Shown piece by piece: positions 5,437 to 40,109 of a DNA stretch of 41,294 bases. Source of the stretch: a virus (Duplodnaviria > Heunggongvirae > Uroviricota > Caudoviricetes); the IMG/VR virus record IMGVR_UViG_3300033074_000010, positions 1-41,294 of that record; one strand, 5' to 3'. How positions within the stretch are numbered: position 1 is the first letter of the stretch; every line of letters begins with the position of its first letter. A model generated the notes under the pieces. That model did not search any database. It was given only the letters and a program-made list of their open reading frames with translations, and was not told the DNA's origin. The translations under genes were made by a program, and so were the position numbers.

Positions 5437-5457
5437 AGCCCCGAAAGGGGCTTTCTT
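5437..5457 (+). terminator. terminator-like hairpin
   Basis: Stem AGCCCC/GGGGCT with GAAA loop followed by TTCTT. Confidence 0.5.
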
Positions 5458-6539: not shown

Positions 6540-7000
6540 TGATGGGCTTTTTCAAAGTAACTGATGTGCCGTCGCGTCGCGTAGTCCAGTACGCTCGTGT
6601 GTCTGGCTCCGGTGAGAACGTGGTATTTATTGAAGATGAAAGTGTACTGGGTACACCAGTAGACGATATGCCGTTTGCGGACAAGACTGGTATTGCGCTG
6701 CCTGCGGCAGGTATGCTTTACGAGATTCCGTATCTGGCGGACGCTGGCGACGTGTATTTCTCTGCACAACCACAGGACGTCGAACTGGCAGACGGCAGCG
6801 CCACTATCACTGTCGAGGTTAAGGCGGGCAAAGCACCATACGCGCTGACCTGGTACAAAGACGGTAAGGAAGTGGTAAACGCCCCGGAAGAGGCTTTGTC
6901 TCTGACGGTTAATGCGGTGGGTGAATACTTCGTTAAAGTTACTGATGCCGATGGTGTAGAGGCCGTAAGCAAAGCGGCGAAGGTCACTAAGCCAGAATAA
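6539..7000 (+). CDS. hypothetical structural protein with Ig-like C-terminal region
   Basis: 153-aa ORF; C-terminal segment (ATITVEVKAGKAPYALTWYKDGKEV) resembles Ig-like domains. Confidence 0.4.
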   Translation: MMGFFKVTDVPSRRVVQYARVSGSGENVVFIEDESVLGTPVDDMPFADKTGIALPAAGMLYEIPYLADAGDVYFSAQPQDVELADGSATITVEVKAGKAPYALTWYKDGKEVVNAPEEALSLTVNAVGEYFVKVTDADGVEAVSKAAKVTKPE

Positions 7001-7006
7001 ACTGAA

Positions 7007-7025
7007 GCCCCGAAAGGGGCTTTTT
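7007..7025 (+). terminator. rho-independent terminator
   Basis: Stem GCCCC(7007-7011)/GGGGC(7016-7020), GAAA loop, T5 run. Confidence 0.65.
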
Positions 7026-7089
7026 AGCGCCTGTGACTATTCCAGTTATTCCACCGAATTGTAAATGTTAGAATAAACTATTCGAATAG

Positions 7090-7118
7090 TTGACTTTTCA
7101 CCAAAAATGTGCTAAGCT
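7090..7118 (+). promoter_or_regulatory. sigma70-like promoter (extended -10)
   Basis: TTGACT(7090-7095), 17 nt, TGcTAAGCT(7110-7118); 16-bp perfect palindrome AACTATTCGAATAGTT (7076-7091) overlaps the -35. Confidence 0.55.
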
Positions 7119-7121
7119 CCA

Positions 7122-7230
7122 CCTGAGCTTGTGAAGTATGAACAAGCGACCGCGGCACGGCAGGTAACGGAGCCGGACGTTAAGTCCGAGTGTAGTTACG
7201 CTGACGCGTTCGGAAGGGCCATACTCTATT
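7122..7230 (+). ncRNA. candidate structured RNA / cis-regulatory leader, copy A (family unassigned)
   Basis: No ORF of 60 aa or more; 5' 34 nt identical and 3' ~31 nt near-identical to 36852-36963; conserved hairpin GCTTGT-9nt-ACAAGC. Confidence 0.4.
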
Positions 7231-7297
7231 GCTTGTGTAAAAAGTAACTGGTTTACTGAGATTACGCCGTTTCTATGTTTAAATGATAAGGACTAGC

Positions 7298-7324
7298 GCC
7301 CCGCTTTAAGGCGGGGCTTTACTT
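7298..7324 (+). terminator. terminator-like hairpin (weak U tract)
   Basis: Stem GCCCCGC(7298-7304)/GCGGGGC(7311-7317) followed by TTTACTT. Confidence 0.35.
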
Positions 7325-7341
7325 ATCGAGAAAGGGGAAAC

Positions 7342-7728
7342 ATGAATCTTAAAGCAACTGTCGTAGCAGGAGCATGTTTCATCATCCTGTTATATGTACA
7401 CGGCTACTTTCAATACCGCAGCGGCTGGAACGAAGGCCGGGCGAATCTCGTTTCGCAGCAACAGCAGAAAGCACAGGCTGAGTTAGCGAAGAAAACACAA
7501 CGGCAGCAGCAGGATGAATCAAAGGCCGCGGCCGCCGACAGCGAAGGCAAGACGAAATCAGAGGTGATTACCCGTGAAGTCGTTAAGTACATTAAAACAC
7601 CTGGTCGCAGCGTGTGCACTTTCGACGATGCTCGCGTCCTGCTCAAGTCCCGCGCCGTCGCAAACGCCAATTCCATCCCCGGATACGACGATGATGCAGC
7701 CACCGTGCAAGCTGGCACCACCAAGTAG
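7342..7728 (+). CDS. i-spanin (Rz-like), putative
   Basis: N-terminal TM helix then charged coiled-coil-like region; contains embedded +1-frame lipoprotein ORF. Confidence 0.55.
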   Translation: MNLKATVVAGACFIILLYVHGYFQYRSGWNEGRANLVSQQQQKAQAELAKKTQRQQQDESKAAAADSEGKTKSEVITREVVKYIKTPGRSVCTFDDARVLLKSRAVANANSIPGYDDDAATVQAGTTK

Positions 7729-27856: not shown

Positions 27857-27887
27857 TTCTCAATTCCTTATATTGTTGGGGTATGTG

Positions 27888-28175
27888 TTAACTATAATAG
27901 TGTGCTATTAGGGTGTCAACCTGTTTAAACGAGCCAACGACAAAAACATTTGCACCACGTTTACGCATACGCTCGTGCTCTCGTAACTGGTGCGGGTCTG
28001 GCTTCGTGTTTTCGTCTTTCTTCACCTCGACAAACCAGACTATGCCGCCAGGGAGAATTACCAGCAGGTCTGGAGCGCCGGAGCGCCCCTCGTAGGAAAG
28101 TTTACGAACGAGGCCACCAATGGCCTCGAATCGCTCCTTCGTGTATTTCTGTATTTTGCCCTCAGGCGTACTCAT
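27888..28175 (-). CDS. VRR-NUC domain nuclease (putative)
   Basis: PD-(D/E)XK-like core GAPDLLVILPGGIVWFVEVKK; 95 aa. Confidence 0.65.
   Translation of the reverse strand: MSTPEGKIQKYTKERFEAIGGLVRKLSYEGRSGAPDLLVILPGGIVWFVEVKKDENTKPDPHQLREHERMRKRGANVFVVGSFKQVDTLIAHYYS
27891..27919 (-). promoter_or_regulatory. sigma70-like promoter with conserved box (site 2)
   Basis: Read on - strand: TTGACA (27914-27919), 17 nt, TATAGT (27891-27896); palindrome AATAGTGTGCTATT 27896-27909. Confidence 0.6.
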
Positions 28176-31396: not shown

Positions 31397-31449
31397 CTTA
31401 ATTTCTCGCTTTTCAGTTTACTCCGGGAACTGCCCGGCCAGTGATTAGA

Positions 31450-31478
31450 ACTATAATAGCTAACTATTCGGGTGTCAA
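31450..31478 (-). promoter_or_regulatory. sigma70-like promoter with conserved box (site 3)
   Basis: Read on - strand: TTGACA (31473-31478), 17 nt, TATAGT (31450-31455); palindrome AATAGCTAACTATT 31455-31468. Confidence 0.6.
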
Positions 31479-33519: not shown

Positions 33520-33550
33520 TTGTTTCTCTCCTCTCGTTTGGTATGGGCTA

Positions 33551-33579
33551 ACTATAATAGTGAACTATTCACTTGTCAA
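33551..33579 (-). promoter_or_regulatory. sigma70-like promoter with conserved box (site 4)
   Basis: Read on - strand: TTGACA (33574-33579), 17 nt, TATAGT (33551-33556); palindrome AATAGTGAACTATT 33556-33569; divergent from the Cro-like gene. Confidence 0.6.
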
Positions 33580-33643
33580 TGGGCTTTTATAAAATAATTA
33601 ATATGGTACTATTCACATATCAACTGACTAAGGAGTAATTGAC

Positions 33644-36547: not shown

Positions 36548-36714
36548 TTCACGTTCTCCTTAATCCACGCTTCAACTTTATTACGGTCGAATGTTCCCGG
36601 CATCCGGCGACCCATTACTTTAACGCCGCAATCTGGAAACTTTCCACTCTTAATCCAGTTATTAATTGTCTGGCGGGTGACACCGATTAATTCTGCAACT
36701 TCATTGATAGTCAT
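36544..36714 (-). CDS. AlpA-like HTH DNA-binding protein
   Basis: MTINEVAELIGVTRQTINNWIKSGKFP matches AlpA/MerR-like phage regulator pattern; ATG 36714 after AGGAGA (track ORF extends to 36804). Confidence 0.65.
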   Translation of the reverse strand: MTINEVAELIGVTRQTINNWIKSGKFPDCGVKVMGRRMPGTFDRNKVEAWIKENVK

Positions 36715-36743
36715 TTCACGTTCTCCTATGTAAGATATACCGA

Positions 36744-36772
36744 AGTATAAGGCGGTAACTTTGTAAAAGCAA
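36744..36772 (-). promoter_or_regulatory. sigma70-like promoter for leftward early operon
   Basis: Read on - strand: TTGCTT (36767-36772), 17 nt, TATACT (36744-36749). Confidence 0.5.
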
Positions 36773-36794
36773 CCAAAACACCACACAAAGTTAC
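36755..36794. promoter_or_regulatory. inverted repeat, candidate operator
   Basis: 10-bp arms GTAACTTTGT (36755-36764) and ACAAAGTTAC (36785-36794) separated by 20 bp; left arm overlaps promoter spacer. Confidence 0.45.
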
Positions 36795-36819
36795 TAAAAT
36801 ACAAAAGATGCTACTAGTA

Positions 36820-36848
36820 TTGACTTTTACTGAGAAATATGGTAAGCT
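36820..36848 (+). promoter_or_regulatory. sigma70-like promoter (extended -10)
   Basis: TTGACT (36820-36825), 17 nt, TGgTAAGCT (36840-36848); same hexamers as promoter at 7090-7118. Confidence 0.55.
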
Positions 36849-36851
36849 CGT

Positions 36852-36963
36852 CCTGAGCTTGTGAAGTATGAACAAGCGACCGCGGTGCGCGGCAGGCGAA
36901 ACGAGCACGTCTCGACGTGTGGAGTGAGCCTCGCTGACGCATTCGGAAGGGCCATAGTCTATT
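36852..36963 (+). ncRNA. candidate structured RNA / cis-regulatory leader, copy B (family unassigned)
   Basis: Paralogue of 7122-7230; no ORF of 60 aa or more on + strand; identical 5' 34 nt and near-identical 3' block. Confidence 0.4.
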
Positions 36964-37118
36964 ATAATTCCCCGCCTAAATATCTAAGTTATTGATTTGC
37001 CGTAGGTCAGAACCGCAAGCTCACTCACTCACTCTTGGTGCCTTCGGCACCACGTTCGTTTCGTTTCGCTCGCTACCCCATTAAACAAAAGAATCACAAC
37101 GGCAACGTAACTAATCTC

Positions 37119-37147
37119 TTGCACACCCCAATATAATAGGGTACTAT
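37119..37147 (+). promoter_or_regulatory. promoter with conserved box (site 6)
   Basis: TTGCAC (37119-37124), 17 nt, TACTAT (37142-37147); box ATATAATAGGGTACTATTCAC; leader AAACGAGACAGAGGAG precedes ATG. Confidence 0.5.
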
Positions 37148-37181
37148 TCACTTATCGAAACGAGACAGAGGAGTGAGGGTT

Positions 37182-37373
37182 ATGTTTAAGAATGGTCAGT
37201 TGGTTAAATGCGCCGACGGTGAACACGGCATAATTGAATTAAAATCTAAGTTATTTCCCGGTGAGTACGTAGTGACCGTGCAAAAGGTGAGAGGGGTAAA
37301 TTCACAAATATACGTAGAAGAGGAGAACTTAAAACTCATCGGCAACAATTTTAAATTAAAAGGGGCGAAGTGA
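37182..37373 (+). CDS. hypothetical protein (63 aa), AT-rich
   Basis: ATG 37182 9 nt after GAGGAG; track ORF 37173..37373. Confidence 0.5.
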   Translation: MFKNGQLVKCADGEHGIIELKSKLFPGEYVVTVQKVRGVNSQIYVEEENLKLIGNNFKLKGAK

Positions 37374-37576
37374 TGGAAGAATTATTTGAAGAACTGAAAC
37401 ATCATGATTTCGAGGAAATATATTTCGTAGCTGAACGCTACGAGGTGCATTTATCGGACGGGATTACAATTATTACGATGGATAGCCAGCAAATGCTAAA
37501 TAGCTTACAGGCAATCAAAACGGCATCGAATCGTGATGCTTGTGCCGACGACTCTGAGGGAGGTTGCCGTGAATAA
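37373..37576 (+). CDS. hypothetical acidic protein (67 aa)
   Basis: ATG overlapping upstream stop; track ORF 37370..37576. Confidence 0.45.
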   Translation: MEELFEELKHHDFEEIYFVAERYEVHLSDGITIITMDSQQMLNSLQAIKTASNRDACADDSEGGCRE

Positions 37577-37977: not shown

Positions 37978-38000
37978 TTTAAGATTTTACTGAGTGACTT

Positions 38001-38030
38001 ACGCTGCTACACAGCAGCGTATCATTTTTC
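38001..38030 (+). terminator. rho-independent terminator
   Basis: Stem ACGCTGCT/AGCAGCGT (38001-38020), ACAC loop, then ATCATTTTTC. Confidence 0.6.
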
Positions 38031-39398: not shown

Positions 39399-39675
39399 CA
39401 TCCTGAAACGAAGCGGCCTTGCGCCGCTGTCACCGAGAGCGAACACCCGAATATACAAGCGCCGTCGTAACGCGCTGTACCCGGAGATACAAGAACGGCG
39501 CAAAGCTATCCGCGCCTGTGGGTTCCAGAACGGGAAGGCCGTGAACCTCGGTGAGTTCAAAACACAAGAGCGCGCCGCAATCGCTAATCGGTTATTTAAT
39601 TACTGGAAGTCGCTGGGGTACGATGATATTCCGACGAAACCACAGAGACGACAATACATCTGGAGACACAAATGA
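39382..39675 (+). CDS. hypothetical basic protein (97 aa)
   Basis: ATG 39382; Arg/Lys-rich; track ORF 39373..39675. Confidence 0.45.
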   Translation: MSLATDILKRSGLAPLSPRANTRIYKRRRNALYPEIQERRKAIRACGFQNGKAVNLGEFKTQERAAIANRLFNYWKSLGYDDIPTKPQRRQYIWRHK

Positions 39676-40109
39676 CTACTATCGCGTTCGACGGAAGGAC
39701 CATGGCCTGTGATACCCGAGTAGCCGGGGACCACATTTACAACACAGATACCAAGATATATGAGAACGAGTTTGTTGTTATCGGTGTGGCGGGTAATGCT
39801 GAAGCTGGTATCCTTTTAGTGAGGGACGATGGCATTTTAGTACCTAAGCATTATGATTTTGATTTCTCTGCTTTGGTGTACGTGAAAGACACGGAAAAGG
39901 TGTATAAAGTCGCATTTTATAAATCATGGGATTGTGCACTTAGTTCAGTTATTCCGATTGCTGATAGCTTTGCCGCCGTCGGCTCTGGTGCACCATATGC
40001 ACTAGCGGCTATGTATTTAGGCCATACAGCGACACGTTCTGTAACAGTAGCCACCCAATTCGACACCAACACCGGCGGCAAGATTATTACCAAACAACTA
40101 TTAGGATAA
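39672..40109 (+). CDS. HslV-like / proteasome-type Ntn-hydrolase peptidase (putative)
   Basis: N-terminus MTTIAFDG (Thr after initiator Met, as in HslV MTTIV); GSGAPYALAA matches HslV GSGGPYAQAA; 145 aa. Confidence 0.55.
   Translation: MTTIAFDGRTMACDTRVAGDHIYNTDTKIYENEFVVIGVAGNAEAGILLVRDDGILVPKHYDFDFSALVYVKDTEKVYKVAFYKSWDCALSSVIPIADSFAAVGSGAPYALAAMYLGHTATRSVTVATQFDTNTGGKIITKQLLG

Follow-up and report, generated by a model that had tools for sequence, protein, structure and literature searches.

A structured RNA element in the non-coding leader of a Kagunavirus genome and the complementarity of its internal loop to the shoulder of the leader's own hairpin

The operon divergence and its non-coding gap

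The IMG/VR virus record IMGVR_UViG_3300033074_000010, analysed here over its full 41,294 nucleotides and referred to as the window, is the genome of a Kagunavirus (subfamily Guernseyvirinae). It carries two copies, A and B, of an RNA element. We describe here copy B and the leader that contains it, in which the tract lying 3' of the leader's own hairpin complements L5, one of the two internal-loop strands of the element. The leader is situated between two operons. The leftward operon begins with the gene of a helix-turn-helix (HTH) regulator at 36717, followed by the primase-helicase and polymerase genes; the rightward arm has its first ATG at 37182 and continues with small early genes and the holin, endolysin, terminase and portal genes. 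This layout agrees with a preliminary description of the locus, made from the sequence alone, which had placed the region at the divergence of a leftward early operon and the rightward arm. The non-coding gap measures 464 bp from the HTH gene start to the ATG, with about 327 nt lying past the inferred transcription start. The 501 bases around the feature have matches in 179 phage records, the best being the Escherichia phages EcoPhCCP1 (95.8%), MirsaeidiM_Esher4 and L AB-2017. The features of the gap, together with the paralogous unit located elsewhere in the window, are the following.

36744-36772, minus strand: candidate leftward early promoter TTGCTT-17-TATACT, read from the sequence, which would serve the operon of the HTH regulator and primase
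36820-36848, plus strand: promoter P_B, with TTGACT, a 17-nt spacer and the extended -10 TGgTAAGCT; a sigma-70 motif homologous to the copy A promoter (7090-7118)
36851-36963, plus strand: copy B of the RNA element, covariance-model hit of 112.7 bits
36896-36906, plus strand: L5, GCGAAACGAGC, the 5' strand of the P2 internal loop and part of the upper stem
36921-36929, plus strand: L3, GGAGUGAGC, the 3' strand of the P2 internal loop, with a family-invariant GAGUG
36964-37019, plus strand: C-rich and G-poor linker, which has a small hairpin at 36997-37018 and includes the conserved motif AAGTTAYTGAT...TGCCGT
37020-37034, plus strand: (CTCA)3.8 microsatellite, from Tandem Repeats Finder
37036-37052, plus strand: hairpin t_B, 7 pairs (5 G-C), loop UUC, -11.2 kcal/mol; reported by a terminator scan and terminator-like on the plus strand only
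37054-37069, plus strand: post-hairpin tract GUUCGUUUCGUUUCGC, an interrupted U-tract and the target of L5, in which (GTTTC)2 offers two pairing registers
37091-37118, plus strand: block GAATCACAACGGCAACGTAACTAATCTC, just 5' of the next promoter and the widest-conserved piece of the gap
37119-37147, plus strand: next promoter, TTGCAC-17-TACTAT, overlapping the palindrome AATAG-N4-CTATT and serving the first rightward gene (ATG 37182)
7090-7317, plus strand: paralogous unit A, consisting of a promoter (7090-7118), the element (7121-7230), a linker and a strong terminator-like hairpin (7298-7317)

P_B stands back-to-back with the leftward candidate promoter, at whose matching position promoter-like hexamers are found in the relatives K1H (TTGTGT-17-TATAGT) and SP-101 (TTGATT-17-TATACT). 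All variants of P_B retain the spacer length of 17 nt and the TG of its extended -10, and the base between TG and TAAGCT varies. A simple hexamer scan passes over this promoter, as TAAGCT fits the consensus at only three of six positions. Transcription of copy B would start near G36855. The next promoter was found at 37119, where the preliminary description had put it. Its twin, 97% identical and located at 15446-15480 on the minus strand, precedes a small membrane-protein gene, which supports the orientation assumed for the 37119 promoter.

The RNA element and the complementarity of its internal loop

Copy B folds into a 5' hairpin, P1 (36857-36877), and a long irregular stem, P2 (36880-36946), which contains a large internal loop and ends in a variable apical hairpin (36906-36919). 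The covariance model finds only two copies of the element in the window, A (7121-7230) and B; the preliminary description had recognised copy B with its start off by one (36852-36963). Pattern scans of IMG/VR combined with GenBank relatives yielded 57 instances of the element, representing 31 distinct sequences of 110-113 nt, which comprise copy A and, for copy B, the four subtypes B1 to B4. The covariation analysis that the preliminary description had suggested for related phages was carried out on this set. Based on RNAalifold and pair counts, 97.4% of the pair cells across the 31 distinct sequences are standard pairs, as compared with 35-45% in a control in which the partners were slid by 1-3 columns. 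Five pairs have both sides changed. In P2, for example, column pair 36:98 is CG in 18 sequences, UA in nine and AU in three. Copy B retains all structural pairs of the element. These results indicate that the element is a real structured RNA, with good but not overwhelming support from covariation.

The element is an undescribed structured RNA family. A search of the whole window against Rfam 15 gave no match at the gathering threshold, and the segments of both copies (36700-37250 and 7000-7400), searched at E values up to 10, gave nothing beyond hits of chance level, in unrelated families. The leaders of three relatives likewise gave nothing above chance, and none of their alternative modules (K1H, SP-101 and Bas72) matches. 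A riboswitch was rejected, as no Rfam aptamer class matched. Literature searches combining the virus group with non-coding RNA, small RNA and transcriptome, and with the sequence itself, returned no description of the element. Two further pairings were considered and set aside. A pseudoknot joining the P1 loop (GUAUG) with CAUAC in the 3' tail was rejected, since any of C, U, G and A can occupy the tail position and the pairing is lost, with no compensation, in Golestan and phiEc3. A closing helix, P0 (CCU/AGG), is invariant and its 5' strand is probably upstream of the transcription start; it is unsupported and was not counted.

The preliminary description had taken the stretch as non-coding and had named a short conserved protein-coding gene as the contrary case. 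The reading frames are not conserved among relatives, in which 1-base and 4-base indels occur. The open reading frame (ORF) that spans the element varies in length from 17 to 55 codons, with frameshifts, and none of the ORFs within 36964-37150 is kept throughout six close relatives, each being absent or frameshifted in one or more of them. A gene here, such as the 44-aa ORF at 36861-36995 or one of the 30-40-aa ORFs around 37000-37150, is extremely improbable. ORFs are indeed present, EcoPhCCP1 and Bas72 carry automated annotation of them, and copies A and B of the window have N- and C-terminal residues in common in one frame. Nevertheless, the ORF is cut short, at 19 codons in the majority copy A and at 17 in many B copies, single-base indels shift the frame, the downstream ORFs are absent or frameshifted in three relatives (L041, L045 and L051), no Shine-Dalgarno sequence was seen on reading the sequence, and the substitutions track base pairing, not codons. 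The small ORFs were thus rejected as genes. 'Hypothetical proteins' are annotated over the element and leader in GenBank PQ850621 (Bas72_0007) and PQ384582 (XHQ01485/XHQ01484), and the window frames concerned by such annotations are 7131-7247 and 36861-36995. Those placed over the element in several GenBank records are probably false gene calls.

L5 of the element is complementary to the tract 3' of the leader's own hairpin. Its 9-mer GCGAAACGA (36896-36904) is the perfect complement of UCGUUUCGC (37061-37069). In a second register, one repeat unit earlier, L5 forms an 11-bp duplex that includes two G-U pairs with 37054-37064 (-16.8 kcal/mol). The shuffle p for L5 against the post-hairpin tract in the window is 0.003-0.009. 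In phiEc3-type (B4) phages, L5 reads ACGCAACGC and is perfectly complementary to GCGUUGCGU, which lies 3 nt past the hairpin of that leader. Both the B4 loop and the B4 leader differ in sequence from those of the window, and the complementarity is retained. When the B4 9-mer is compared with that of A/B3, all three differing positions turn a mismatch or wobble into a Watson-Crick pair with the B4 target. The best L5 duplexes, defined as the best anywhere in each lineage's own (cognate) leader, are listed below.

B1 (this window): -16.8 kcal/mol, shuffle p 0.009, at +2 to +14 after the hairpin
B4: -20.2 kcal/mol, shuffle p 0.002, at +2 to +17 after the hairpin
B3: -15.6 kcal/mol, shuffle p 0.028, at -2 to +9 relative to the hairpin

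Swapped, non-cognate combinations of L5 and leader gave p=0.13-0.40 and thus did not reach significance. The opposite strand of the internal loop, L3, has an 8-nt complement at 37019-37026, with more registers along the CTCA repeat, and in the other leader type ACUUCACUC matches L3 at eight of nine positions when compared by eye. The "extra structure" noticed in the preliminary description is in this way tied to copy B, with the GTTTC and CTCA repeats being complementary to the two loop strands. No complement of the 5' arm of t_B was found in element B, either on inspection or in a systematic complement search. The full-length B RNA folds at -70.1 kcal/mol with long-range pairs, as compared with -61.2 kcal/mol for the halves folded separately, a gain of 9 kcal/mol. 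For phage Golestan, which has six CTCA units, the corresponding values are -87.9 and -64.1 kcal/mol, a gain of 24 kcal/mol.

We also paired L5 of copy A with the leaders that lack copy B, and the best duplex falls at the same hairpin shoulder. The energies are -17.5 kcal/mol (p=0.05) for the K1H leader and about -17 kcal/mol (p about 0.04) for the SP-101 and Bas72 leaders. At the hairpin shoulder of the B3/B4-type leader, copy A L5 reaches -22.9 kcal/mol (p<0.001). These duplexes in trans owe something to a G-rich loop meeting C-rich hairpin arms, and duplexes of equal energy occur genome-wide; action in trans is therefore a lead only. When the whole genome was scanned for sites that the loop strands might target in trans, many sites of similar energy turned up, and the scan was rejected as unspecific. 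It included a perfect 12-nt complement of copy B L5, UGCUCGUUUCGC, at 9656-9667 on the plus strand, within a 55-aa ORF (9576-9743) after the major capsid gene. We estimate that about 0.005 such matches are expected per 12-mer over both strands of the window, or roughly 0.06 over the queries tried. The same 12-mer is also present in K1H, which does not have this loop type.

The downstream half and the distribution of the cassette

The linker and repeat region (36964-37036, 73 nt) contains 21 C and 10 G. Within the small hairpin at 36997-37018, a substitution in contig L051 converts a C-C mismatch to a C-G pair. This 6.2-kb contig (JAEWLW010000073.1, labelled as a Bacillota bacterium metagenome-assembled genome, MAG) carries a B1-type copy and a leader nearly identical to that of the window, and is most likely a phage contig mis-binned into a Bacillota MAG. 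The CTCA microsatellite is the only tetranucleotide array in the 41-kb window. The preliminary description had reported it as (CTCA)3 at 37021-37032; the array is there, with its position one base off and its extent 3.8 units. It has three units in several relatives, four in L051 and six in Golestan. A B4-type leader in contig L007 (IMG/VR contig 3300045988_018086) has (GTGA)3, the complement of the CTCA unit, in place of GTGAGCAAG, about 25 nt 5' of the CACUC site. This array points to recurrent tetranucleotide slippage of the CTCA motif in the region.

The perfect hairpin GGTGCC-TTC-GGCACC of the preliminary description is found at exactly 37037-37051, and a U-A pair extends it to 37036-37052. 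It is identical in all B1/B2 leaders, and non-homologous GC hairpins occupy its place in K1H, SP-101 and Bas72. The tail of t_B, CGTTCGTTTC, has five T in the 8-base scan window, with a longest T run of three. What had been called a GTTTCG direct repeat is a repeat, although of a different unit, namely the tandem pentamer GTTTCGTTTCG at 37058-37068. The hairpin and the GTTTC tract, 39 nt together, contain one substitution in a comparison of six distinct B1/B2 leaders with varying flanks, which makes them the best-conserved part of the downstream half.

Copy A is present in all 181 matching phage records, covering Kagunavirus and Jerseyvirus, and a second matching place (copy B) in about 37 of these, roughly a fifth. 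Pattern scans of IMG/VR and of a set with one genome per species found the element solely in Guernseyvirinae-like contigs and in one MAG contig that resembles the phage. The downstream half (36964-37118) is complete in only about 20 of the 148 records matching it; the remainder match only over the last 30-36 bases, block GAATCACAACGGCAACGTAAC, which directly precedes the 37119 promoter. The segment 37091-37118 is the sole part of this half that matches in most of the 148 records, including Jerseyvirus, and may serve as an upstream element of the promoter or as a site for a regulator. In relatives without copy B, the non-coding gap measures 400-500 bp and its elements follow the same order, namely a rightward sigma-70-like promoter, a leader of about 300 nt with an unrelated 5' module, a GC hairpin, the conserved block and the downstream promoter. 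Even in these relatives of unrelated sequence, the GC hairpin lies about 70 nt ahead of the same downstream promoter. The preliminary description's remark that so long an untranslated region is unusual consequently needs qualifying, since the gap is found subfamily-wide and a further one, 341 bp long, holds copy A.

K1H, SP-101 and Bas72 each have a different 5' module. These unrelated modules follow strong promoters (L036, K1H, 1176-1500; L037, SP-101, 1168-1500; L053, Bas72, 37260-37560), and those of K1H and SP-101 have a common hairpin with the loop CCGCCCUAA(A)GCGG. Judged by these comparisons of sequence, the gap is a mosaic hot spot for non-coding modules. The copy B promoter is homologous to the copy A promoter and not to the promoters of the other leaders, which shows that the whole cassette was copied into this site. 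A hybrid at the A locus of contig L040 (IMG/VR contig 3300045988_039442, 2216-2327) has a B3-subtype core within A-type flanks, and its sequence indicates recombination or gene conversion between copies A and B.

The palindrome overlapping the 37119 promoter is common to two promoter families in the window. One consists of three leftward TTGACA-17-TATAGT promoters in the replication cluster (27880-27919, 31439-31478 and 33540-33579, minus-strand sense), the other of two or three TTGC(A/G)C-17-TACTAT promoters (33597-33621 and 37119-37156, plus strand; 15446-15480, minus strand). AATAG-N4-CTATT is probably the operator of a phage regulator. Among the early genes, a 145-aa protein (39672-40109, plus strand) matches the PHROG family 'peptidase HslV family' with E=2e-34.

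Read-through control, rival explanations and known systems

We propose, at a probability of about 0.4, that the leader RNA pairs with the shoulder of its own terminator and so sets termination versus read-through. According to this proposal, 36820-37069 would be one non-coding transcription unit, in which the strong host-type promoter P_B would give rise to an RNA of roughly 205-215 nt. The first 105 nt or so would fold into the conserved two-hairpin domain of element B, a paralogue of the capsid-operon unit; an unstructured C-rich linker would come next, and the RNA would end at the GC hairpin and the interrupted U-tract. L5 would pair with the tract directly 3' of the hairpin and L3 with the CUCA repeat directly 5' of it. 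Through such an RNA-RNA contact, the way in which the 5' domain folds would be linked to what becomes of the transcript at the hairpin, be it termination, 3'-end stability or read-through. Two outcomes are envisaged, either a short, closed and stable RNA, or read-through to the rightward early, lysis and packaging genes. The short B RNA and the universal copy A RNA might also act in trans on read-through transcripts. The preliminary description had offered a longer regulatory RNA or a processing/termination site, a reading that is supported in part; the non-coding stretch, the conserved promoter, the covarying domain and a hairpin detected by the terminator scan are in place, and the regulatory role is what we put forward here.

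Unit A has the same layout, with a strong promoter, the element and the terminator-like hairpin t_A (-17.2 kcal/mol). The genes immediately downstream of it are, as named after the annotated relative Bas72, those of the Rz/Rz1 spanin, the scaffold and the major capsid protein. From the end of t_A to the Rz spanin gene the distance is 25 nt. These genes have no further promoter between themselves and t_A, and just upstream of the unit there is another terminator (7004-7025). Further intergenic terminator-like hairpins with T-tracts are found in the rightward arm at 38000-38021, 2013-2028 and 5437-5452 (plus strand), of which the last ends 10 nt before a head-morphogenesis gene; one such hairpin of the arm stands just before the small terminase gene. 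These hairpins imply leaky termination or antitermination in late transcription, and their positions before the capsid genes and between rightward-arm genes suggest that control of read-through matters for the phage. Comparison of ten small phage proteins with PHROGs and Pfam recognised no antiterminator family and gave only HTH/excisionase-like, weak NinH-like and weak MarR-like matches. In a wider form, which we regard as rather unlikely, this undescribed riboregulator family would be a read-through switch of the Guernseyvirinae, whose internal loop pairs with the 3' shoulder of terminators, in cis in B-type leaders and in trans in K1H- and SP-101-type leaders, and so times the lysis, packaging and capsid genes without an antiterminator protein.

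Several observations weigh against read-through control. While the RNA is being transcribed, a terminator hairpin cannot be blocked by pairing on its 3' side, and such pairing may only stabilise the 3' end. The U-tract after t_B is interrupted (ACGUUCGUUUCG), so that termination may be weak, and the 37119 promoter already serves the downstream genes, which makes read-through from P_B not obviously needed. In terms of energy, the pairing of L3 with the CTCA repeat does not reach significance (p=0.12-0.9; 0.12 in the window), and B1 L3 finds a still better partner in the non-cognate leader of K1H type. L5 of copy A has no significant complement in its own downstream region, where it pairs best with the 5' arm of t_A (p=0.064). 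Elsewhere in the window there are duplexes as stable or more stable, and only the local, position-specific argument counts. With about five subtypes the covariation derives from few independent events, and the z-score of the complete B fold is -1.12. The literature searched yielded no transcript, 5'-end or 3'-end data for any member of the Guernseyvirinae.

The main rival, a stand-alone small RNA with its tail tucked into the loop, accounts for most of the same facts. Here copy B would supply a second dose of the copy A RNA, with targets elsewhere (host or phage mRNAs, or a host protein), and the pairing of L5 with the 3' tail would only shield the 3' end from exonucleases. The element's own strong promoter and terminator-like hairpin, the separate promoter of the downstream genes at 37119, and the very conserved loops and junctions across genera, as for a protein or RNA partner, are all in keeping with such an RNA; a dosage effect would agree with the duplication of promoter and element as one cassette, and the small gene after the capsid gene holds the perfect 12-nt complement of L5 (9656-9667). 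That site, however, is present in K1H without this L5 type, and the many duplexes of similar energy leave no target that could be named. The 5' module is swapped in most relatives, which is odd for an essential trans-regulator, although copy A stays in all of them, and the terminator between the strong P_A and the capsid genes is left unexplained. We consider a stand-alone small RNA a possibility to be held with reserve. In another rival, the leader is a largely neutral spacer, with copy B a recent duplicate of the copy A cassette in a recombination-prone hot spot, and the repeats and hairpin are by-products of slippage and mosaicism. In line with this are the mosaic 5' modules of the relatives, the presence of the specific downstream sequence in only about 20 of 148 matching records, the free variation in microsatellite length, the exchange between copies seen in the B3-type core at the A locus of L040 and the unremarkable whole-fold z-score. 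A neutral spacer is nonetheless quite unlikely, for the hairpin and GTTTC tract are near-invariant between varying flanks, the L5 complementarity occupies the same place in two lineages with different sequences, and every structural pair is kept in copy B.

The lineage-specific complementarity of L5 is likewise unaccounted for by a put-like processive antiterminator, in which the nascent element, alone or with a phage protein, would bind RNA polymerase and override the hairpin at 37036-52 and later terminators. The two-hairpin architecture, the two paralogous copies, each placed between a sigma-70 promoter, from about +2 onwards, and a terminator-like hairpin, and the several terminator-like hairpins between rightward-arm genes (for example 5437-5452) would all suit such a function, and putL of HK022 begins at about +3 of its transcript, directly after PL (PMC9378689). 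On the other side, the element resembles putL neither in sequence, as compared by eye, nor in length (about 105 versus about 70 nt), it has no Rfam match, and the unrelated 5' modules of most relatives are hard to square with a conserved surface of the host polymerase. Moreover, copy A lies downstream of several of the terminators to be overcome, and the ten small phage proteins include no known antiterminator family. We judge a put-like function to be distinctly unlikely. Still less credit, to the point of being highly improbable, is given to an element acting as DNA, a replication origin or protein-binding array beside the primase-helicase operon. The short repeats do lie at the divergence of the replication genes, and the cumulative GC skew has its minimum at 36-37 kb. 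This minimum coincides with the switch in gene orientation, which makes it uninformative, and a replication origin was rejected on that account; the repeats differ by lineage and yet stay complementary to the RNA loop, which speaks for RNA pairing and against a protein site held in common, and copy A sits among structural genes.

Guernseyvirinae (Kagunavirus and Jerseyvirus) are common phages of E. coli and Salmonella and are represented in therapy and biocontrol collections. No account of their transcription regulation was found in the literature searched. A conserved structured RNA heads their capsid operon and, in some members, also the divergence of the early operons, which makes the element a strong candidate for the missing control element in gene timing. 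If the proposed read-through control is true, pairing between an internal loop and a terminator shoulder would add a compact, protein-free design to the known mechanisms of antitermination and attenuation.

The closest precedents of read-through control by a leader RNA are the CI RNA of P4 and the IsrK RNA of Gifsy-1, and the element is in neither family, nor in that of HK022 put. P4 CI RNA pairs with seqA and seqC in its own leader, resulting in premature termination, and the short terminated isoform of IsrK acts on its own read-through isoform (PMC4825925). Common to P4 CI, P1/P7 c4 and IsrK is a small RNA that comes from the untranslated leader of the operon it controls and whose pairing decides downstream termination or translation (PMC4825925). 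Similarly, our element is at the 5' end of an untranslated leader, which extends from P_B to the first rightward gene, and exposes strands complementary to sites in the same leader, with p=0.002-0.028 for L5 in three lineages and two sequence pairs; the second site, L3 with the CTCA repeat, is only suggestive (p=0.12). In contrast to these RNAs, its pairing strands are in an internal loop and not in hairpin loops, its target abuts the 3' side of a hairpin and not a ribosome-binding site, and a role in prophage immunity does not apply, as this phage group is regarded as virulent. The search of the two leader segments at E up to 10 likewise gave neither a sequence nor a covariance-model match to them. 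The Rfam library used presumably contains the C4 and IsrK models.

The put RNAs of HK022, putL and putR, bind the zinc-binding domain of beta' and suppress termination without protein factors. Like put, the element occurs as two paralogous cis RNAs of two stem-loops located right after promoters, with terminators downstream. Unlike putL, to which homology was rejected on a comparison made by eye and without an alignment, it has a different stem layout, and at its locus most relatives carry unrelated modules. The late leader of lambda is arranged as PR', 6S RNA and tR', together with Q. Unit A resembles it in having a strong, constitutive-looking promoter (TTGACT -35), followed by about 200 nt of untranslated leader and by a terminator immediately ahead of lysis and head genes. 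The differences are that conservation of RNA structure extends over 105 nt, not just over promoter-proximal DNA, that no Q-like protein was recognised among the ten small proteins scanned, and that copy B precedes early genes that have their own promoter. With intrinsic terminators, t_B has in common a GC-rich hairpin in non-coding RNA, a T-rich tract after it and its detection by a consensus scan. The U-tract of t_B departs from theirs in being broken every 3-4 bases by C or G, and, unlike that of ordinary terminators, it doubles as the pairing partner of an upstream loop.

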